Part shown: in pieces, positions 3,478 to 51,684 of the stretch
Layout: every line of letters begins with the position of its first letter
How positions within the stretch are numbered: the stretch's first letter is position 1
DNA from: a virus
Lineage: Duplodnaviria; Caudoviricetes
Virus record (IMG/VR): IMGVR_UViG_3300032046_000036
Span: 1 to 51,684 of that record
Length of the DNA stretch: 51,684 bases
Strand: one strand, 5' to 3'
Made by a program: the position numbers and the translations under genes
Notes under the pieces: model-generated
What the model was told of the DNA's origin: nothing
The model's input: only the letters and a program-made list of their open reading frames with translations
Database searches by the model: none

Positions 3478-3741
3478 TTATTTGCCTGTTTGGACAGGCA
3501 TTATGACTGATGAACATTCCTCGCATTCCACTTTGTAGGGTATCTTGGTAAGTTCGGCAACCTTAACCAGGAACCTGGGAGATACTTTCTTGCCCTGAAA
3601 GAATGTCGTTACCACGCACTCCAGGAAGCCGGTGTGTCTTGCGAGATAAACTTGCTTTCTTTCGTTGACATCAAGCCACCGCCGAACCATCTTCTGGAAT
3701 GTCGGTCTATCAATGATACTTGTCGGAGTATTGGATTTCAT
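3478..3741 (-). CDS. XRE/Cro-like HTH regulator
   Basis: QVYLARHTGF...VTTFFQGK..S...LVKVAE pattern; directly downstream of a promoter. Confidence 0.55.
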   Translation of the reverse strand: MKSNTPTSIIDRPTFQKMVRRWLDVNERKQVYLARHTGFLECVVTTFFQGKKVSPRFLVKVAELTKIPYKVECEECSSVIMPVQTGK

Positions 3742-3767: not shown

Positions 3768-3805
3768 ATTAAAACTTTTCCTTTAACTTTGTCAAGAAAA
3801 ACTTT
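3768..3805 (-). promoter_or_regulatory. sigma70-type promoter
   Basis: TTGACA (3795-3790), 16 nt, TTTAAT; preceded by AAAGTTTTTC. Confidence 0.6.
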
Positions 3806-9694: not shown

Positions 9695-10141
9695 TTATAA
9701 TATCTTCGCTTCCCGCATAGACTGATATTTGCCAAACCCAATTATGATATGGTCTAATACTTCAATATCAAATAATTTAGCACCTTCTTTTATTCGGATG
9801 GTTAATTTTATGTCATCATCTGACGGTTCGGGATTGCCTAACAGGTGGTTATGCACCAATATAATTGTAGTAGCATTACACAGTATTGCCGACCTCAAAA
9901 TATCCTTCGGGCTGAGAAGGCAAGCATTACCCGTTCCAATCCCTACTATTTGGTAATTCATTATCCGGCCTCTTGCATTCAGGTTCAAGACAATAAATTT
10001 CTCTTGTAAGTCATTCTTTAGTGCCTGAAATAATAGATATGTTTTCTCTGGACTGTCCATTATATCGGTGGGCTTGAATTTATATTCCCCTTTATTCCGC
10101 TCCCTTACCATCAGTTGTTTTACCCTAACAATATATGCCAT
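9695..10141 (-). CDS. RadC-like JAB/MPN domain protein
   Basis: QEKFIVLNLN, LVHNH..GNPEPSDDD, VLDHIIIG. Confidence 0.9.
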   Translation of the reverse strand: MAYIVRVKQLMVRERNKGEYKFKPTDIMDSPEKTYLLFQALKNDLQEKFIVLNLNARGRIMNYQIVGIGTGNACLLSPKDILRSAILCNATTIILVHNHLLGNPEPSDDDIKLTIRIKEGAKLFDIEVLDHIIIGFGKYQSMREAKIL

Positions 10142-10200
10142 ATTTATCTCCCGGCAGGGTGGGGAGGGTCGCTACCGCCCTACCCCACCCCTTGCCATTG

Positions 10201-10512
10201 CTAAACAATAGCACCGGCTGTAGCGTTGCCAGTGTTATCTTCCTTACAGGCAATTGCTTTCGCCCGTGCGAAAAGTAACCCCTTGTCAGTGAGACCTTCC
10301 TTCTCCAATTGCTCTATTGCCTGATGTATGTGTTCCCCCGTGACCTGTGTATTCTTCAGTTCGTGCAGGATATTCACCGCGGGTGCTTCACCATCCCTTA
10401 CTTTTTCTACGATGATGCTGACTACTCTGTTCAGGTTCACTATGAAATGGGTAGGCACTCTTTGGTCTTTCTCTTTGAACATCATCCTTATTGCTCGCTT
10501 GTTGACCAACAT
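10201..10512 (-). CDS. Hypothetical protein
   Basis: GGGGTG RBS. Confidence 0.65.
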   Translation of the reverse strand: MLVNKRAIRMMFKEKDQRVPTHFIVNLNRVVSIIVEKVRDGEAPAVNILHELKNTQVTGEHIHQAIEQLEKEGLTDKGLLFARAKAIACKEDNTGNATAGAIV

Positions 10513-10549: not shown

Positions 10550-10744
10550 TCATATTAAATTCTTATCAAGCCCTGCCACATTCAATAACAAAGTCTTTTC
10601 CACACGCCGGCATATTTTCCTGATAACCTTTCTCTGCTCGTATGCGTCGTTATTACAAGCATATAACTCTGACACTCCATTGACCACAACATTAAAACGG
10701 TTCAGTTTGTCTTGCCCTTTATAGGTTTTTATTTCTACTAACAC
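10550..10744 (-). CDS. Hypothetical protein
   Basis: AAGGAGGTG RBS, GTG start. Confidence 0.65.
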   Translation of the reverse strand: MLVEIKTYKGQDKLNRFNVVVNGVSELYACNNDAYEQRKVIRKICRRVEKTLLLNVAGLDKNLI

Positions 10745-10761
10745 TGTTTATCACCTCCTTT

Positions 10762-11136
10762 CTATTTAACCGACCCCAAGAACTCACCCATAAGGGCTTT
10801 CCTTTTCTTGAGGTCGTGAATTGCTATGCCAAAGCCAAACTCACTCGTTCCGCCTATGAAAGTAGGATGCACCGTGCCATCCCAATCCTTAATGAGAGTA
10901 TAAACGAAATAGCCATCATTCAAACGGGCTTTCTGCACCTTCAAAGGCTTAACCCCGATTTCTTTTAGTGCCTTCATTAATCGTTCCTTTGTGATTATCA
11001 TTTTGCAAGAAGAAAAGCAAGCCGAGGCGAGGGGAGTCAAATCCGATGAAAGGTTTGACCGTCCGGGCAATGGCAGTAGCCCAGACGAACTGCCCCGGCT
11101 TGCATTAAGTTTCTTTGGTGCTATTGATTGATTCAT
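10762..11136 (-). CDS. First early gene; 5' part doubles as a structured RNA leader (alternative start 11001)
   Basis: AGGGGAG RBS and ATG at 11136, downstream of promoter; in frame with MIITKERL. Confidence 0.55.
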   Translation of the reverse strand: MNQSIAPKKLNASRGSSSGLLPLPGRSNLSSDLTPLASACFSSCKMIITKERLMKALKEIGVKPLKVQKARLNDGYFVYTLIKDWDGTVHPTFIGGTSEFGFGIAIHDLKKRKALMGEFLGSVK

Positions 11137-11150
11137 CGGTTTCTCCCCTT
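11008..11150 (-). promoter_or_regulatory. Structured leader: three-way junction plus U-tract, containing an anti-RBS segment
   Basis: 12-bp P1 (11092-11103 with 11017-11028), two internal hairpins, 11030-11050 complementary to 11132-11149. Confidence 0.65.
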
Positions 11151-11161
11151 TCACTGCTCTC

Positions 11162-11200
11162 ATTATAAAGTTTTCCTTTAGAATTGTCAAGAAAATCTTT
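11162..11200 (-). promoter_or_regulatory. Consensus sigma70 early promoter
   Basis: TTGACA (11190-11185), 17 nt, TATAAT (11167-11162). Confidence 0.9.
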
Positions 11201-11341
11201 ATTATTATGTCAAATAAATCGGGGGTAATGGGTTTTGGCAATCCTTTGGTAGATAAGGAGTTGTGTGCTTTTCAGGAATGGGCAAAATATATTTTCAGTT
11301 TGTGTGCGGATTTTTAGGGCAGAAATTGACAGGGAAGGGGG

Positions 11342-11373
11342 AGGCAAGCCCACCCTTGCGAGTGGACTCGCCC
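11342..11373 (-). terminator. GNRA-capped hairpin in a pyrimidine-rich tract after the last late gene; possible end of late transcript
   Basis: GGCGAGTCCACTC-GCAA-GGGTGGGCTTGCC on the minus strand; no clean U-run. Confidence 0.4.
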
Positions 11374-11422
11374 GCAGGAACAAGGCAAGGCAAGGCAAGA
11401 AAGGAAATTGTTCCCCCCTTAA

Positions 11423-11986
11423 TTAACTCGGCTGACGAATTGATTTTAGGTCAGTCTTGATTGACTCATAGGTATTCATCGCTACCGCCTTGTTTCTCAA
11501 GATAGTGTTGATGGCGTCAATATACTTCCCGTTCTCCACGCTCTTTTTAACTTCCTCCACGCCCTCATATACCGATTTCAGTTTCTTATTCGCCAGCATC
11601 TTGCGGTATAGGGCATAAAGAAATCCACCAATAGACAGTGCAGTAGCCCCCCACGGCACATTATCCTGTATCTGCTTCTCAATGAATCCCCACAGACCAT
11701 CCGATGCCTCGTGTTCCTTTTTGGCATCATCGCGGGCTTCAATTGAGTATTCAGGGGAATACGGCACAGGTTTTCCCGGAGGGCCGAGATTGTCCGTCAA
11801 TACTTTGGTGTTAGCGACTATATCGGTTGCCACGGTCTTGATATTATCAGTTGCCTCAGGGCTTGTCAGAATAACTTTCCCAGCCTCACCGGTCTGGTGG
11901 ATAAGTTTCTTGTCCCCTTCGGTAACCATTGGAATGCATCCAATAACAAAGCAACACAATATAGCCAGAAAAATTGTTCTCCACAT
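11423..11986 (-). CDS. Lipoprotein with a second hydrophobic segment (possible spanin/lysis accessory)
   Basis: Signal peptide ending VIGC; WGATALSIGGFLYALY segment. Confidence 0.55.
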   Translation of the reverse strand: MWRTIFLAILCCFVIGCIPMVTEGDKKLIHQTGEAGKVILTSPEATDNIKTVATDIVANTKVLTDNLGPPGKPVPYSPEYSIEARDDAKKEHEASDGLWGFIEKQIQDNVPWGATALSIGGFLYALYRKMLANKKLKSVYEGVEEVKKSVENGKYIDAINTILRNKAVAMNTYESIKTDLKSIRQPS

Positions 11987-12662: not shown

Positions 12663-13319
12663 TCAAACTTTAATAATTGAAATCTTTTCGCCGGCCTCTC
12701 TGCCCGTATTGAAGGTAATGGTAGTGCTGTTCGTTTCTATATAATCGTTTCCCGCGCCTACAACCATTAATATACCACCACTAAATACCAGTAATGTAGT
12801 TACCCCAGGTGTATAGGTAAAAGTCGTCAAAACAAATACCGTTTGAGTTCCAGTGGCTACGAAGTTCTCGCGCTTACTAAAATCACTTATCGCAGTATCA
12901 ACATATTGCTTGGTTGCGGCCTTCATTGCCGCATCGGGGTCTGCGTGCAAGGTAATATAGCCTGCCATTGTCCCGCCCGCTTTTGGTAACATCGTGTCAA
13001 CATATTGCTTGGTTGCGGCCTTCATTGCCGCATTGGGGTCTGCGTGCAGGGTCAAATAACCTGACAAAGTTCCGCCGGTCAATGGCAGGTGTCCGAGTTC
13101 CGTTGCCAAGTCCCCTAATACATACCAGTCCGTATTGGTCTCGTTCCTCACCTTGATGAGGGAATTGGCGGTGTCAATCCAGGGCTGGCCCGCTTCCATT
13201 ACGACAGGCTCAGTCGCCCCCAAAAACCAAGTCCGCACCGCCTCGTCTCGGTCAATGATTTTCTGCCGGCTGTCTGAAAGTAAATCGGTAGCGCTAATAC
13301 TCGGATATGTTTGACTCAT
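12663..13319 (-). CDS. Tail fibre protein with two GGT..G..TLHADP.AAMKAATKQYVD repeats
   Basis: Typical fibre repeat, 99-bp period at ~12895-13090. Confidence 0.75.
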   Translation of the reverse strand: MSQTYPSISATDLLSDSRQKIIDRDEAVRTWFLGATEPVVMEAGQPWIDTANSLIKVRNETNTDWYVLGDLATELGHLPLTGGTLSGYLTLHADPNAAMKAATKQYVDTMLPKAGGTMAGYITLHADPDAAMKAATKQYVDTAISDFSKRENFVATGTQTVFVLTTFTYTPGVTTLLVFSGGILMVVGAGNDYIETNSTTITFNTGREAGEKISIIKV

Positions 13320-40388: not shown

Positions 40389-40730
40389 TGGTGGAGGCGG
40401 GCGGAATTGCACCGCCGTCCATACGGACTTCCATAATAGCATCTACATCCATATTCAAGCGTTTTTTCTCAACGACTAACCGGTTGCTTGAACACCGATT
40501 AGCCATCCAGCAATAGTTTGTTTCAGGTATCCTACCTATTGCTATAGGAAACCATATCCGAAACTTTAGCGTCGCACCTGACTATCGGAGTCATCGGGTT
40601 TGACGAACGGCTATGCCGCTTTTCTTAAAGGTTCAGCAGTTAAGACTGCGACCGATTTTTAGCGTGGCCCTTCGGTCAACCACGGAATGCAACTATTACT
40701 TCCATCCGCTGTCGAATCTAATTCGCCCCC
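40389..40730 (-). ncRNA. ssrA: Complete one-piece tmRNA; tag (A)AEPLRKAA* at 40637-40611
   Basis: 5' GGGGGCG...GATTCGAC; 3' GGCGG-TGCAATT-CCGCC-CGCCTCC-ACCA; G3:U wobble; TAACT-GCT resume context; 342 nt. Confidence 0.95.
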
Positions 40731-43746: not shown

Positions 43747-45099
43747 TTAACCTCCTTTTCTTAAAGATAATATATTACTGGGTATTCCTCTAATCCTACG
43801 TTTGGCTATGTCTATATATTCTGGACTGATTTCAATCCCTATGTAATGTCTGCCAAAACTTCTTGCCACTAGGCAGGTAGTCCCTGCCCCTGCGAACGGG
43901 TCTAATACAATACCACTATCAAAACTGGCGCCGCATCCACAGTCAGTAAGTTCAAATCCAATCTTCTTCTGAACCTGTTTGGTAAATAAAGTGTTGGTCG
44001 GAGATGCTTTTATCTGTTCACCTGTTTTATCACGCCATATTTTCTTTATTAGGCAAGGTGCTTTCTTCCAGATAACTATTCTTGGCTTACCACATTTCTT
44101 ACAGATAAATTTAGGGCAGGTTGCCCTAATTGGTATCTCACATAGTTGAGTCGGATAACTTGCGGCGTGTTTTTCGTCTAATGGACAAGTCGGAATAACC
44201 CATACACAACGCTTGTTACGACCTGTTGGGTTAGGGCGTAAATTCCTACCCGCCCTTTCTCCCATTACATATTGATTGGTCTTGGCTTTATATTTGCCCC
44301 TTATCATTTCCCCACCCCACCTGTTCAAAGATTTTGTATAAATATCAAATTGCTGGTCAAAGAAATAATCCGGGCTTTTGGTAAAGAAATATAAATACTC
44401 AAAATCAACTGTGAATCGGTCAGTAGCAGAAGCCGGCATACAATTAGGTTTTGCCCAGATAATGGTATTACGTCTAATCCAGCCTCGCTTTTGCATTTCT
44501 AATACAAACATTTCGGGAATGCCTACCAATGATTTTGATGTCATATAACGCCCTGGTGGAATAAATTGGGGTTGCCCCGGTGCATTAATACTATACCGAT
44601 TTTTGGTTTTTGTAGTTCTATTTTCACCACCAAATCCTTGTAAAGACCCACCGTAACTATCGGCAATATTAAGCCAGCACGAACCATCTCCTTTCAAGAC
44701 CCTCTTTACTTCATCCAAAATATCGCAGAGATGCTTGATGTAAAGCCCTGGGGTAGGCTCAAGACCTAATTCACCACGCCAAGCCCTACATTTTGAGCAA
44801 AAGGCACTGGGGCTATTCCCCCATCCGTGCAAACCCTTTTTAAGGGCAGTATGACTACTTAAAGCGCCACCTATACCCTGCTGGTTTTGATGGATTAACC
44901 GTGCCGTATAATTGACCCAGCGGTGTTGACAGCCGGTTTTGCTATCCCATATAATGGGATTTGTTTTATATGACCTCAGACTCCAATACGGCGGCGATGT
45001 TATAACTATATCTATTGATTCGTTAGGAATTTCCTTTAAGATTTCTAAGGCATTCCCCTGAAGTATGGTATCAATAATATCCTTAACTCGGTATATCAT
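43747..45099 (-). CDS. Beta-class amino (N4-C/N6-A) DNA methyltransferase with Cys-rich insertions
   Basis: ITSPPY, IIWAKPNCMP, H.A.YP, VLDPFAGAGTT; likely start MIYRVK. Confidence 0.9.
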   Translation of the reverse strand: MIYRVKDIIDTILQGNALEILKEIPNESIDIVITSPPYWSLRSYKTNPIIWDSKTGCQHRWVNYTARLIHQNQQGIGGALSSHTALKKGLHGWGNSPSAFCSKCRAWRGELGLEPTPGLYIKHLCDILDEVKRVLKGDGSCWLNIADSYGGSLQGFGGENRTTKTKNRYSINAPGQPQFIPPGRYMTSKSLVGIPEMFVLEMQKRGWIRRNTIIWAKPNCMPASATDRFTVDFEYLYFFTKSPDYFFDQQFDIYTKSLNRWGGEMIRGKYKAKTNQYVMGERAGRNLRPNPTGRNKRCVWVIPTCPLDEKHAASYPTQLCEIPIRATCPKFICKKCGKPRIVIWKKAPCLIKKIWRDKTGEQIKASPTNTLFTKQVQKKIGFELTDCGCGASFDSGIVLDPFAGAGTTCLVARSFGRHYIGIEISPEYIDIAKRRIRGIPSNILSLRKGG

Positions 45100-45115
45100 A
45101 ATTATTATTCCGCCT

Positions 45116-45532
45116 TTAGAACGGTATATTTTCTTCTTCCTCTTGCTCGTGATTCGGCTGGTCTTCCTCTGACCTCTGTTCCGGGAGAACAGCCTGTTTA
45201 TCCGTCTTGGGCAGAAACTGGACTCGCTGGGCAACTACCTCTATACTTGACCTTTTCTGCCCTTCCTTAGTCTGCCACTGATTCATACGCAACCGACCTT
45301 CCACCAAAGCAAGACTGCCTTTCTTGAGATGCTCGGCACAGGCTTCTCCCGTCCGACCCCACACAGTTACTTTGATAAACAGAACACTCTCTTTTTTTCC
45401 CCCATCTTGTGTCGTATAATGCTCATTAACCGCTAAATCAAAAGAACAAACCGCCTTTCCTTGTTGGGAATATCGCAATTCAGGGTCTCGCGTTAGGTTA
45501 CCCATCAGTATCACGCAGTTAAAATTAGCCAT
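45116..45532 (-). CDS. ssb: Single-stranded DNA-binding protein
   Basis: N.VILMGNLTRDPELRY, VEGRL, acidic IPF tail. Confidence 0.95.
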   Translation of the reverse strand: MANFNCVILMGNLTRDPELRYSQQGKAVCSFDLAVNEHYTTQDGGKKESVLFIKVTVWGRTGEACAEHLKKGSLALVEGRLRMNQWQTKEGQKRSSIEVVAQRVQFLPKTDKQAVLPEQRSEEDQPNHEQEEEENIPF

Positions 45533-46587: not shown

Positions 46588-46644
46588 ATTTACGGTCATA
46601 AAGGCAACATCGCAAAACTGGAGAGGCGGTGTTCGGCGATTTTA
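46588..46644. repeat. 57-bp direct repeat of the MTase 3' end; second copy 47816-47872
   Basis: 55/57 identical by eye. Confidence 0.9.
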
Positions 46645-47351
46645 CAGTATTCCTCTGATATTTCTATGCCGATAAAACGCCTGCCTAATTCTTTACAGGC
46701 AACAGCGGTTGTTCCAGAACCGAGAAAAGGGTCAAGGATTAAGTCGTTTTCTTGAGAACACGCAACGATACATCGTTTAGGTATTTCGCTTGGGAACGGA
46801 GCAGGATGAGGATTATTTTTTTCAGGATTTATTCTCCAGATTTCCTTATAATGGAATGCCTCTGGATTAAATTTTGGAGAAAACCTTCCTTTCGTAATCC
46901 AGAATATATATTCAACTATAGGCATAAACCTTATCGGATCTAATACTGGACTATTTCCTCTGTCCCAAATAATCATTTGTCTTATATTAAAAGATAATAG
47001 CCATTCGTGGGGGAAAATTGCCTTATGATTAACTAATCTCGGCTTATGATTATAGAAAATACTTCCGTCATCCTTCAAAACTCTCAAACATTCCTCCAGA
47101 ACTTCTTTTTGATTTTTTTGATAATCCTTTTCTGGTAAATCATCCTTAAACTCTCCATAAGAAATTGCTGATTTAACCCAAGCGTCTTTTGGGTCATGCT
47201 TTTTATTAGCCGAATGTTTATTATACGGAGGGCTGGTAATCACAAGGTTAATACTTTTATCTGGTATATCTTTCATAACTTTAAGGCAGTCTCCACAGAC
47301 AACCTTATTTACCATCTGCGTCCAGTCGGTGATTTTGTTAAGTTTTAGCAT
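46596..47351 (-). CDS. Beta-class amino (N4-C/N6-A) DNA methyltransferase
   Basis: GDCL, ITSPPY, HPAPFP, ILDPFLGSGTT. Confidence 0.92.
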   Translation of the reverse strand: MLKLNKITDWTQMVNKVVCGDCLKVMKDIPDKSINLVITSPPYNKHSANKKHDPKDAWVKSAISYGEFKDDLPEKDYQKNQKEVLEECLRVLKDDGSIFYNHKPRLVNHKAIFPHEWLLSFNIRQMIIWDRGNSPVLDPIRFMPIVEYIFWITKGRFSPKFNPEAFHYKEIWRINPEKNNPHPAPFPSEIPKRCIVACSQENDLILDPFLGSGTTAVACKELGRRFIGIEISEEYCKIAEHRLSSFAMLPL

Positions 47352-47789: not shown

Positions 47790-48749
47790 CTACAGCAGAT
47801 AGTTTACCGAGCGTAATTTACGGTCATAACGGCAACATCGCAAAACTGGAGAGGCGGTGTTCGGAGATTTTATATATTTTATAATTCTTTTTGCTATCCA
47901 TTCGGCAACAGGCACACTAACCGCATTGCCTATAACTATTCCTCGCACAGAGTCCAGTTTGTTGTTGGGAATCCCTGTAATCTCTCTTTTTCTGTCGGTG
48001 TTAGTTTCCGTAATATAAGTGTCTTGCCATATAAAGGAAGCGTTGCCTCGTTTTCCTTGGTTGACAGTATTGGCAACGACTGTATTCCATTCGTTTCGTA
48101 ATGACCAACCTTTGTCCCCGTAAGATTTTGCTGTAAGGGTGTTAACTTTTGCGATAAGGTTTTCTCCGAATCCGAATTTACGCAACCGCTTATCATCTGC
48201 TCTAATTGTGTTAGCGATATACGTTTCAGCCGTTGGGTCTTGTCTTTCCCCGTCTCTTGCAGAAATACATAACCCCCTCTCCCCCATTTTTTGCTTCTTC
48301 TTATCATCCCCGCCACCGCCTTTTGGCTCAAATAATATTTCGGGTGGACAGATTTTTCCAAGACATCCGACAATGAACACTTTCTTGCGTCTCTGGGCAA
48401 GTCCGAAATATTGACTGTCCAGTAATCTATAAGACCACCCATAGCCGCTTTGGGCCAGCGTTTGAAGAACGATTGCCATATCCCTGCCTTCGTTAATGGA
48501 AAGGAGTCGGGGAACATTCTCAATAAGTAACCATTGCGGGATAAGTATGTTGACAATCCGCATACACTCAAAGAAGATAGAACTTTTTTCGCCTTTAAGA
48601 CCCTTGCCTTTTGGGTTGGCGTTTGATATGTCCTGGCAAGGGAATCCGAACGCAATAAGGTCAAGATGTCGGTATGTTTCGGGACTTTCGGCCAGTGCTT
48701 TTTCAAGACTTTCAAAGCATACGGCATTATTTCCACTTGACCGATACAT
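47790..48749 (-). CDS. C5-cytosine DNA methyltransferase subunit B (motifs IV-VIII and X)
   Basis: GFPCQD, ENV, QRRKKVF, GNAVSVPVAEWI; AGGAGG 6 nt before ATG. Confidence 0.85.
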   Translation of the reverse strand: MYRSSGNNAVCFESLEKALAESPETYRHLDLIAFGFPCQDISNANPKGKGLKGEKSSIFFECMRIVNILIPQWLLIENVPRLLSINEGRDMAIVLQTLAQSGYGWSYRLLDSQYFGLAQRRKKVFIVGCLGKICPPEILFEPKGGGGDDKKKQKMGERGLCISARDGERQDPTAETYIANTIRADDKRLRKFGFGENLIAKVNTLTAKSYGDKGWSLRNEWNTVVANTVNQGKRGNASFIWQDTYITETNTDRKREITGIPNNKLDSVRGIVIGNAVSVPVAEWIAKRIIKYIKSPNTASPVLRCCRYDRKLRSVNYLL

Positions 48750-49094: not shown

Positions 49095-49505
49095 CTACTT
49101 CTTGAGGTAGCCGTCTATGACCGCTTTGGCTTCCTCAAACCCGTGGCAACAGACGGCAAGATAACCTCGCTGGTTAAGTTTCTTCAGCCAGTCCTCTTGG
49201 ACAGAACTAAGTTGTTCTTTATCTATCTTTAGTTCAAGGAAAAGACTGGCATATTTTGTCCATTTATAATGTCCCTCCGCAAAAATCATTAAATCCGGAG
49301 TTCCAGGGGTATAACCCATTTTCTTTGCTTTACCGCCGGTTCGGGAATTTGTAATAAGTCCCCCCGGAGATATAGTAAAAAGCACATCAGGATATTGAAG
49401 TCGTAAATAGGATACTACCGCCATTTGTAGGTGTTGCTCATCGTGGCGTGGCTTCTTCTCCCGTTTCTCGTGTTCGTAGATGCCGGTTCGTGGGTTAAGT
49501 TTCAT
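49095..49505 (-). CDS. VRR-NUC nuclease
   Basis: E..LQ, G..PGTPDL, LFLELK, S..Q..W...L...GY. Confidence 0.85.
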   Translation of the reverse strand: MKLNPRTGIYEHEKREKKPRHDEQHLQMAVVSYLRLQYPDVLFTISPGGLITNSRTGGKAKKMGYTPGTPDLMIFAEGHYKWTKYASLFLELKIDKEQLSSVQEDWLKKLNQRGYLAVCCHGFEEAKAVIDGYLKK

Positions 49506-49518
49506 ATTTTATCCCCTT

Positions 49519-50154
49519 TCATTTGGTTTGATTTAACAACCCAAGTCCGTAATTTAATATCTTAAATTTCGTTGCCTCGTTAGTTGCCGCCGCATAAGCC
49601 GCATAAACCGCCTTAGCCGCATAAGACGCCGCCTTCTTAGCCGCATAAGGCGCCGCATTAGCCACCGCATAAGACGCCGCCTTAGCCGCATAAGCCGCCG
49701 CCTTAGCCGCATAAGACGCCGCATAAGACGCCTCATAAGCCGCATCAGCCGTATAAGCCGCATAAGACGCCGCATAAGCCGCATAAGCCGCATCAGCCGC
49801 ATAAGCCGCCGCCTTAGCCGCCGCATAAGCCGCCTTTTTATTTTTCGCTGACGGATTCTTAATACATTTCTTCGCCGCCTCTATCGCCTTTCTGGGACGG
49901 TCATCATCAGGATATTTGGTTTCATATAGGTTTATTACCTGTTCTGCGGCATAGACTGCATATGATACACAATCGTGATAAGTCATAATCCGCACGATGA
50001 ACCAGTTCGCCCAATCATACTTTTCAGCCTTCATCATTTTGTCCAAAAGGGACAGTGAGTCCCTTTCTTTTTTGTCCCACCACTCAATCGCTTCCTGACA
50101 AGGTGTATTCTTTGTAATCCATTTATCAGTTATTGACTTTATTATCGGTTTCAT
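49519..50154 (-). CDS. Ala-repeat, Imm5-like protein paralog 2
   Basis: YPDDDRPRKAIEAAK followed by AAYAA repeats. Confidence 0.8.
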   Translation of the reverse strand: MKPIIKSITDKWITKNTPCQEAIEWWDKKERDSLSLLDKMMKAEKYDWANWFIVRIMTYHDCVSYAVYAAEQVINLYETKYPDDDRPRKAIEAAKKCIKNPSAKNKKAAYAAAKAAAYAADAAYAAYAASYAAYTADAAYEASYAASYAAKAAAYAAKAASYAVANAAPYAAKKAASYAAKAVYAAYAAATNEATKFKILNYGLGLLNQTK

Positions 50155-50173
50155 TTTCGGTCTCCTTTCCTCT

Positions 50174-50419
50174 TTAGATAGTTACAAATTCACCATCTTT
50201 GGTTAGTCCATAATATCCTTGTATTTCAGGCAATCCATAAGCAAGAGCCAGTCTATGACATTCCTTTTTGGCATCAAATGTTGCTTGGTCTTTTCTTATT
50301 CCTTCGCCACAAGAAAAAACAATCATAGTCTCCCCTTGTTGCCACCCTTGAGTTACTAATCTAATTAGTTTTTCCTTATCTTCCTTTGTTACAAATACAC
50401 CAGTCTTATTCATTTTCAT
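50174..50419 (-). CDS. Hypothetical protein
   Basis: RBS, operon packing. Confidence 0.6.
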   Translation of the reverse strand: MKMNKTGVFVTKEDKEKLIRLVTQGWQQGETMIVFSCGEGIRKDQATFDAKKECHRLALAYGLPEIQGYYGLTKDGEFVTI

Positions 50420-50427
50420 TTTTCCTT

Positions 50428-50733
50428 TCATTTATCGGGGTTATATTTTACAATTAACTTATTTATATCCTCTGTCCACTTAGCAAGATTAGAGGGGTCA
50501 ACCTTTAAGTCGTGCAAATCGCTTACAATCTCGGCTTTTATCTGTTTGCATAAACCATCAATATATTTTGTTACCCATTCTTTTGTTGCCAAGTCATCCA
50601 CCAGTTCGGCTTCTATTTCTATATAACCCCCTTTCAGCGTTTCGGGAGGATATACTTTAATATCTGATTTAATCCCGTGCTTTAGAAAATAATCCAGTAA
50701 ATCGTCTATATGAAATCTAACTTTAACCTTCAT
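50428..50733 (-). CDS. Hypothetical protein, KVKVR paralog 2 (mosaic)
   Basis: N-half matches 886-1236; C-part shares a segment with 162-515. Confidence 0.75.
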   Translation of the reverse strand: MKVKVRFHIDDLLDYFLKHGIKSDIKVYPPETLKGGYIEIEAELVDDLATKEWVTKYIDGLCKQIKAEIVSDLHDLKVDPSNLAKWTEDINKLIVKYNPDK

Positions 50734-50745
50734 TTCTCTTTCCTT

Positions 50746-50940
50746 TCATTTGGTAGGGATTAAAATCCCCGATAAAAAATCCAATAATCTTTTGGCATCT
50801 CTTTTAGAATAATAAACCCAAGTAACACCCTTCCTATCCTTATTATATTCTTTTGACTGCAAACAAAGAGAACGCTTAAATTCTGTTGACCAATAGAACG
50901 CCCGATTTCCGTCTTTCCATTCTTTACGACTCATCCCCAT
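50746..50940 (-). CDS. Hypothetical protein
   Basis: AGGAG RBS. Confidence 0.55.
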   Translation of the reverse strand: MGMSRKEWKDGNRAFYWSTEFKRSLCLQSKEYNKDRKGVTWVYYSKRDAKRLLDFLSGILIPTK

Positions 50941-50963: not shown

Positions 50964-51155
50964 TCATTTGATAGGTAATTCAATTTCAACAAGAAGTTCT
51001 TTTTCTACTTCTCCTGTATAAGATATAATCGCTTCTTCTTTAGTCTTCCAAAACCCTGTAGAAAACCATTGGGAGGTGTGGGGATAACAATAAGCCAAGA
51101 GATAATACTTCATTGTTGGGGGTAACTCTGTAACCGTTGCTTTTATTTCATCCAT
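50964..51155 (-). CDS. Hypothetical protein
   Basis: AAGGAG RBS. Confidence 0.6.
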   Translation of the reverse strand: MDEIKATVTELPPTMKYYLLAYCYPHTSQWFSTGFWKTKEEAIISYTGEVEKELLVEIELPIK

Positions 51156-51167
51156 TTTCTTCTCCTT

Positions 51168-51684
51168 TCATTTGGTTTGATTTAACAACCCAAGTCCGTA
51201 ATTTAATATCTTTAATTTAGTTGCTGCCATATTAGCCACATCAGCCGCCTTAAACGCCACATCAGCCGCCTTAGACGCCGCATAAGCCGCATCAGACGCC
51301 GCATAAGCCGCCGCATCAGCCGCCTTAGACGCCGCATCAGCCGCCTTAAACGCCACATCAGCCGCATCAGACGCCGCATAAGCCGCATCAGACGCCGCAT
51401 AAGCCGCCGCATCAGCCGCCTTAGACGCCGCATTAGACGCCTTAAACGCCACATAAGACGCATTAGCCGCATTTTTATTTTTCGCTGACGGGTTCTCAAT
51501 ACATTTCTTCGCCGCCTCTATCGCCTTTCTGGGACGGTCATTATCAGGATATTTGGCTTCATATAGGTTTATTACCTGTTCTGCGGCATAGACTGCATAT
51601 GATACACAATCGTGATAAGTCATAATCCGCACGATGAACCAGTTCGCCCAATCATACTTTTCAGCCTTCATCATTTTGTCCAAA
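51168..51684 (-). CDS. 3' part of Ala-repeat, Imm5-like protein paralog 1 (starts at 165 across the junction)
   Basis: Near-identical flanking domains to 49519-50154 with a different Ala repeat block. Confidence 0.85.
   Translation of the reverse strand, partial: LDKMMKAEKYDWANWFIVRIMTYHDCVSYAVYAAEQVINLYEAKYPDNDRPRKAIEAAKKCIENPSAKNKNAANASYVAFKASNAASKAADAAAYAASDAAYAASDAADVAFKAADAASKAADAAAYAASDAAYAASKAADVAFKAADVANMAATKLKILNYGLGLLNQTK

Follow-up and report, generated by a model that had tools for sequence, protein, structure and literature searches.

The window analysed here, meaning the whole 51,684-bp stretch of DNA, is a complete IMG/VR virus record with direct terminal repeats and a completeness rating of 100%. 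All long ORFs of this phage genome are carried by the minus strand, and the record encodes portal, prohead protease and major capsid proteins, tail-fibre-like proteins (12663-13319) and three DNA methyltransferases. The element that concerns us lies on the minus strand between the last structural/membrane-protein gene (11995-11423) and the first gene of a DNA-metabolism module, which comprises RadC, a clamp-like protein, a PD-(D/E)XK nuclease and a Gp3-like protein. Downstream of the element the operon runs in the order 71 aa, 64 aa, 103 aa and RadC. Neither a tyrosine nor a serine integrase (PF00589, PF00239) was found in the record rated 100% complete, and since no such integrase is detectable the phage looks lytic.

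Several further features of the record deserve mention in their own right. The phage carries a full-length tmRNA gene (40389-40730, minus strand; Rfam RF00023, 115.4 bits, model positions 1-374), for which ARAGORN gives the tag peptide AEPLRKAA*; this is a complete gene, unlike the 3′ fragment usual at integration sites. Within the same operon as the element, between the 103-aa gene and the RadC start (10145-10200, minus strand), lies another very stable structure: a hairpin rich in G and C (GGCAAGGGGUGGGG...CCCCACCCUGCC) and without a U tract, whose 171-nt region folds at -66.4 kcal/mol (z -3.7) and which may be an intercistronic processing or stability element. The spacer from the last structural-side gene to the promoter (11330-11420, minus strand) holds a (GCCTTG)3 repeat as well as a G-U-rich hairpin of 14 bp with a C/U-rich run behind it, and the upstream transcription unit may end here; overall this region shows no unusual stability (z -0.44). 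Finally, in the regions 49500-50770, 51150-51684 and 1-1240, tandem 9/12-nt repeats resembling GCCGCATAA are found within ORFs in 37 copies and two blocks, and the two ends of the record are linked by several 126-226-nt duplications that are 79-97% identical. The repeats and duplications suggest paralogous gene cassettes near the terminal repeat, and one ORF of this set matches Imm5-like/DUF6931.

The element itself begins with a sigma-70 promoter (11190-11162) that scores 12/12 and is the sole perfect match on the gene strand, the perfect pattern occurring twice in the window against 0.04 occurrences expected. From the spacing of the hexamers, transcription would start at about 11155. This promoter belongs to a set of four conserved copies (at 47790, 11190, 7040 and 3797), all on the gene strand, which have in common the TTGACA hexamer and the A/T-rich block upstream of it; the block is possibly UP-element-like. 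The other three copies (47790, 7040 and 3797) are situated 25-35 nt ahead of a gene start. The copy at 3797, which precedes an 87-aa ORF starting at 3741, is 79% identical to the promoter-to-start region at 11200-11140 over 61 nt, and the alignment of these two copies extends through the SD and the 'AUGAA'. Because the paralogous module starts the 87-aa ORF at 3741, we treat the SD at 11148-11143 and the AUG at 11136 as a genuine translation start. The initial annotation had described both the perfect TTGACA-17-TATAAT promoter and the start behind it, and both are present on the minus strand as described; what it had overlooked is that this module exists in four paralogous copies. At 47790 the copy stands at the head of the methyltransferase block, with its three genes (C5, 47790-48749; N6/N4, 46596-47351 and 43747-45234). 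On the minus strand no other promoter-like site occurs between 11162 and 10059, and therefore the genes for the 71-aa, 64-aa and 103-aa proteins and RadC would depend on transcription that passes the element.

Table 1. Features of the leader element and of the first gene behind it, in the order of transcription
Feature	Position	Strand	Remark
A/T-rich block upstream of -35 (ATAATAAAGATTTTC...)	11216-11191	-	conserved in the four promoter copies
-35 hexamer TTGACA	11190-11185	-	sequence pattern
-10 hexamer TATAAT	11167-11162	-	17-nt spacer from -35
SD GGGGAG of leader frame	11148-11143	-	paralogous to the SD of the 87-aa gene behind copy 3797
Leader start AUG	11136-11134	-	module SD...AUGAA
Leader frame, 53 codons from AUG 11136	11136-10978	-	no stop, in frame with the 71-aa gene
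P1 5′ strand (GCAAGCCGGGGC)	11103-11092	-	RNAfold
Hairpin 1, 9 bp, 10-nt loop	11087-11060	-	RNAfold
Hairpin 2, 8 bp + 1 bulge, 7-nt loop UUUCAUC (11051-11045)	11059-11036	-	RNAfold
Anti-TIR stretch UUCAUCGGAUUUGACUCCCCU	11050-11030	-	complementary to SD + AUG (11149-11129); forms helix A
Junction strand UCCCCUC (anti-SD)	11035-11029	-	0.85 unpaired in the three-way-junction fold
P1 3′ strand (GCCUCGGCUUGC)	11028-11017	-	RNAfold; 12 bp with 11103-11092
U tract UUUUCUUCUU	11016-11007	-	directly 3′ of P1
Second SD AAGGA	10989-10985	-	7 nt before AUG 10977; 0.94 unpaired in read-through RNA
71-aa orphan gene, start per source AUG 10977	10977-10762	-	typical codon usage

The frame that opens at the leader AUG crosses the whole structure and the U tract and then continues into the gene at AUG 10977. 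That the two are in frame without an intervening stop had escaped the initial annotation. We infer that the leader frame is translated. Its codon usage is non-coding-like and unlike that of this phage's genes, with a codon log-likelihood of -1.72 compared to 10.6 ± 4.1 for 469 in-frame windows of long genes, just one of which is as low; the 71-aa gene reaches 13.4 on the same scale. Chance leaves about 4% of off-frame windows of 53 codons open, so that the open leader frame alone is weak evidence either way. AlphaFold run on the single sequence assigned pLDDT values below 50 to nearly all of residues 1-47 of the frame, with low overall confidence, and the extension is thus predicted to be disordered if it is translated.

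Folding of the transcript with RNAfold recovers all parts of the three-way junction that had been drawn from the sequence alone, namely the 12-bp P1, the two hairpins and the U-rich tail; the junction spans 87 nt (11103-11017) and is followed by the U tract. This 87-nt core folds at -47.0 kcal/mol, whereas its dinucleotide shuffles reach -27.2 ± 3.2 kcal/mol (z -6.28, 0 of 200), and the MFE structure makes up 35% of the ensemble. The complementary strand of the core is weaker (-40.8 kcal/mol), and the same holds for the 150-nt putative transcript, with a z of -3.84 compared to -1.60 for its complement. Among 5159 overlapping 100-nt windows of the genome the one with the core is 4th by MFE and moves to 2nd once GC content is corrected for, which makes it one of the three most stable loci; the comparable ones are the tandem repeats at ~49.6 kb and the intergenic hairpin at 10135-10254. 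P1, which closes the junction, and the U tract fall within codons 12-43 of the leader frame. We predict that the U tract is a site of intrinsic termination, in which case an RNA of ~147 nt (~11155 to ~11009) would be released, close to the ~145 nt proposed in the initial annotation. The site is missing from the output of a simple terminator scan because that scan is restricted to loops of 3-8 nt.

Enclosed in this fold is the anti-TIR stretch, whose complementarity to the RBS and AUG of the same RNA had also been noticed from the sequence. The duplex between the two is worth -24.7 kcal/mol. When the downstream sequence is shuffled with its dinucleotides preserved, 1 of 2000 shuffles does as well; so do 13 of 1391 arbitrary positions, but not a single one of the 60 other starts of long ORFs (best -19.1, median -10.1). 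In the ensemble of the three-way-junction fold (fold B) the complement is displayed, the hairpin-2 loop (anti-AUG) being 0.99 and the anti-SD junction strand 0.85 unpaired. An ordinary GC-rich, self-complementary 5′ end of a gene for a 124-aa protein, with no regulatory role, would account for the open frame, but it would leave to coincidence that the excesses in stability (z -6.28), anti-start pairing (1 of 2000) and atypical codon usage (1 of 469) all occur together behind the promoter and end in a U tract; we regard such a gene as very unlikely.

The same pairing could instead act on translation only. In a gene with two starts, the upstream AUG 11136 would be masked so that mostly the 71-aa protein and little of a 124-aa form is made, and no termination would take place. 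The two AUGs share one frame uninterrupted by a stop, each has an SD, and the duplex that would mask the first of them is significant; moreover, the second SD and AUG 10977 are 0.94 and 0.88 unpaired, respectively, compared to a first SD that is about half paired. Left unexplained by a two-start gene is the presence of a 12-bp stem exactly before UUUUCUUCUU, and the extension that would distinguish the long form is non-coding-like (1 of 469 coding windows is as low) and predicted to be disordered. Control of translation alone is therefore unlikely in our view.

The position of the anti-TIR stretch has a further consequence, as read from the sequence: the gap between it and the P1 3′ strand is 1 nt. 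When the stretch is paired with the start region (helix A, fold A), a pseudoknot with P1 would need a 1-nt loop spanning an 18-bp helix, and for this reason helix A and P1 are mutually exclusive. The initial annotation had seen the fold and the antisense inside it and had missed this exclusion, by which the element reads as a switch rather than a terminator that merely encloses an antisense. Folding of the growing transcript is consistent with two states, as the MFE structure is fold A at +130 (-44.9 kcal/mol) and fold B from +140 (-50.1 kcal/mol), the flip from A to B occurring once the P1 3′ strand has been added. With each fold imposed as a constraint, A is at -46.3 kcal/mol compared to -50.1, -52.1 and -55.3 kcal/mol for B at +140, +147 and +150, respectively. 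The barrier from A to B estimated with findpath is ~21-22 kcal/mol, and fold A would therefore be a kinetic trap if it formed first. We also modelled ribosomes on the leader: a footprint on the start region leaves P1 intact, and P1 is lost with each of the footprints placed at codons 8, 14, 25 and 33. The element is real and statistically exceptional, and it has the anatomy of a bistable leader attenuator.

Our preferred reading, to which we give somewhat less than an even chance, is that the element is a cis-acting bistable attenuator which links occupancy of the leader start to termination. In this model, host RNA polymerase would initiate at about 11155 from the consensus promoter, and the nascent RNA would bear the SD and AUG of the leader frame. 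If the start region pairs with 11050-11030 (fold A), the start would be closed and P1 topologically impossible, resulting in read-through, after which the 71-aa gene would be translated from its own open SD. If the RNA instead adopts fold B, the 12-bp P1 would close the three-way junction right in front of the U tract and the ~147-nt RNA would be released. The choice between the folds would be made during the passage of the polymerase over +106 to +150 and would depend on the occupancy of the leader start and frame at that time. If a ribosome or other factor sits on the start, A would be blocked and B left, a ribosome translating into P1, hairpin 1 or hairpin 2 would melt B in a coupling of the pyrBI type, and an unoccupied start could be captured into A. 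P1 could accordingly be prevented in two ways, by helix A or by a ribosome translating the leader frame, and otherwise stem and U tract would stop transcription. As a general precedent, translation into or near an intrinsic terminator is reported to suppress that terminator (PMC4824070).

Two features of the element speak against an attenuator. P1 closes a multibranch loop, unlike the simple hairpin of the usual terminator, and the terminator scan makes no call; furthermore, the stop-less leader frame is fused to the gene, and the product could be a plain 124-aa protein. The modelling by nested MFE structures is also blind to the possibility that the local hairpin 2 forms faster than the long-range helix A, so that both the fold that wins in the cell and the direction of regulation given above are tentative.

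The two-state layout would also suit an operator or aptamer, in which P1 is stabilised by a small ligand or by a protein, such as the 71-aa product or some other early gene product, and the operon is thereby terminated or silenced, resulting in autoregulation with one burst of expression before the shut-off. The three-way junction is very well defined (MFE structure 35% of the ensemble, z -6.28), it competes with another helix as in a switch, and the first gene of the operon is a functionally unassigned orphan. However, neither a riboswitch nor a leader family of Rfam matches the element, and the 71-aa protein bears no marks of RNA binding, which together make a ligand- or protein-sensing device quite unlikely. 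At the gathering score, Rfam finds only the tmRNA in the window, with no match to a known riboswitch aptamer; with all 4227 families at E <= 10, the region 10700-11500 yields only two chance miRNA rows, both outside the element. For the 71-aa protein, neither the Atlas nor AlphaFold provided anything usable (mean pLDDT 47).

If the ~147-nt RNA is released, it could also act in trans by pairing with the start on later transcripts or on superinfecting genomes and so shut the operon off, in the manner of c4 and CI but unrelated to them. Its anti-AUG loop (0.99) and anti-SD junction (0.85) are displayed unpaired, and its own start is the best target among 204 SD-preceded starts (-24.4; next best -23.0; mean -11.6, sd 3.3). 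When the scan is extended to all 40-nt windows, however, the own start ranks only 5th and the scan is not discriminating; moreover, a target carried in cis should outcompete targets in trans, and neither a C4 match nor an integrase or lysogeny module was found. A trans-acting RNA of this kind is therefore improbable. The initial annotation had offered shut-off in cis or in trans. Supported in silico is a highly structured leader near the promoter whose terminator-like fold contains the complement of its own RBS and AUG; the trans alternative gains no specific support from a scan that places the own start 5th over transcript space. The RNA-based immunity proposed there is not borne out, since no integrase was detected and an immunity RNA would have no obvious use in a phage that looks lytic. 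We consider it very improbable that all of these activities are combined in an RNA-only timing or exclusion device of a lytic phage, with a conditional terminator, a start mask and a ~147-nt RNA that also silences the same start in trans on later or superinfecting genomes, again with no sequence relationship to c4 or CI. With an SD and an AUG but no stop codon, the terminated RNA of such a device would in addition be a programmed non-stop message, and the phage has a tmRNA gene of its own (40389-40730).

Relatives of the element were sought with the DNA, the frame, the neighbouring proteins and the RNA structure. A blastn search of 10700-11450 against the GenBank phages, in a setting for distant matches, gave no match. 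The 124-aa frame has no relative in IMG/VR, and its sole match among 5.8 billion proteins is the 71-aa protein of the window itself; a phmmer search of 1.84 billion representatives returned the frame itself, a low-complexity match and weak SBBP repeat matches only. The latter are repeated matches of residues 63-108 of the frame to SBBP beta-propeller repeat proteins (E 1e-6 to 6e-4). In the collections searched, the 71-aa protein is accordingly a singleton. Among the neighbouring proteins, RadC used as an anchor leads to one relative (36%), the 262-aa protein has no relative in IMG/VR or the GTDB genomes, and the 190-aa protein has none either. The major capsid protein leads to 13 loci of at most 56% identity. 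In five of these 13 records (L006, L007, L010, L012 and L013) the combined leader and gene frame of 124 aa is absent (0 of 5) and the promoter motif occurs at control level; the covariance model R1 has no match in four of them (L007, L010, L012 and L013; 0 of 4).

Built from the single sequence, R1 finds only the window itself. A DNA pattern for hairpin 1 matches 10 IMG/VR loci and an 18-mer pattern 4 metagenome loci, none of them leader-like beyond the seed. The pattern of the two P1 strands has 0 loci in IMG/VR and 2 in GTDB, and both of the latter were rejected as GC-rich coding sequence with an unrelated interior. As the DNA-pattern matches are all due to chance, there is no sign of a host repeat or MITE. 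Neither the RNA nor the 71-aa gene thus has a homologue in any of the collections searched. Among sequencing runs, the stretch occurs in a single one, a DNA run that is maybe its source; the contig in it is identical and the leader shows no variants.

Although the element is a single orphan sequence from a sediment metagenome, it would be instructive if the bistable attenuator works as modelled: ~150 nt of RNA, with no dedicated protein, would gate a whole early DNA-metabolism operon, and a translation start that is read by the ribosome would also serve as an antiterminator strand. The known attenuators would then gain a branched terminator in the form of a three-way junction and a leader frame that lacks a stop and is in frame with the gene. 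With its consensus sigma-70 promoter and self-contained leader, the element would also make a clean test bed for initiation versus co-transcriptional folding.

How does the element compare to known systems? The c4 RNA of P1 and P7 and the CI RNA of P4 are short structured RNAs from the leader of the operon they act on, and some of their single-stranded segments can pair with a stretch of the same transcript that bears an RBS. They belong to the immunity region of temperate elements and mature from the leader through RNase P, which leaves a tRNA-like end. The element likewise carries an antisense to an RBS in the same transcript (11050-11030 against 11149-11129, -24.7 kcal/mol). Here, however, the target lies upstream of the antisense, whereas in c4 and CI it is flanking or downstream, and the element has no match to the Rfam C4 family (RF01695) at E <= 10 over the whole genome, in a phage without an integrase or lysogeny context. 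The kinship with these RNAs suggested in the initial annotation is thus not upheld: the element is not a member of the c4/CI family.

In the lambda PR′-tR′ leader ('6S' RNA), antitermination by Q controls the late genes, and there is neither a translated frame nor an anti-RBS. Its strong constitutive promoter, with an intrinsic terminator ~150-200 nt further on and before a long operon, has a counterpart in the promoter and the putative terminator of the element, but the operon is a DNA-metabolism module here, and the Q-family antiterminators PF06530 and PF03589 have no match in the phage at E <= 1. In hok mRNA and in the long-range pairings of RNA phages, a translation start is masked by a distant downstream complement. 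The start of the leader frame would similarly be sequestered by a complement ~85-100 nt downstream in the same RNA; in contrast to those cases, the helix that masks the start has a terminator-like stem as its competitor, and there is no evident toxin-like product.

The E. coli pyrBI-type attenuator, in which the leader frame runs through the terminator, offers the most points of comparison. Both have a promoter, an SD and an AUG, and a leader frame that overlaps the stem and the U tract, and in our models a close ribosome melts the stem; the downstream genes have no promoter-like site of their own here. As in ribosome-mediated attenuators, the element has its own SD and AUG near the promoter and a putative antiterminator, helix A (the MFE fold at +130), that excludes P1. 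The leader frame differs from that of pyrBI and the classical attenuators in having no stop of its own, its 53 codons being fused to the 71-aa gene. The putative terminator stem closes a three-way junction, the anti-TIR helix represents an extra competing state, and no nucleotide- or amino-acid-sensing feature is evident. Overall, our modelling suggests that the element would act most like a ribosome-coupled attenuator, from which it differs in three respects: the predicted terminator is branched, the leader frame runs on in frame without a stop, and the competing strand is the translation start itself.
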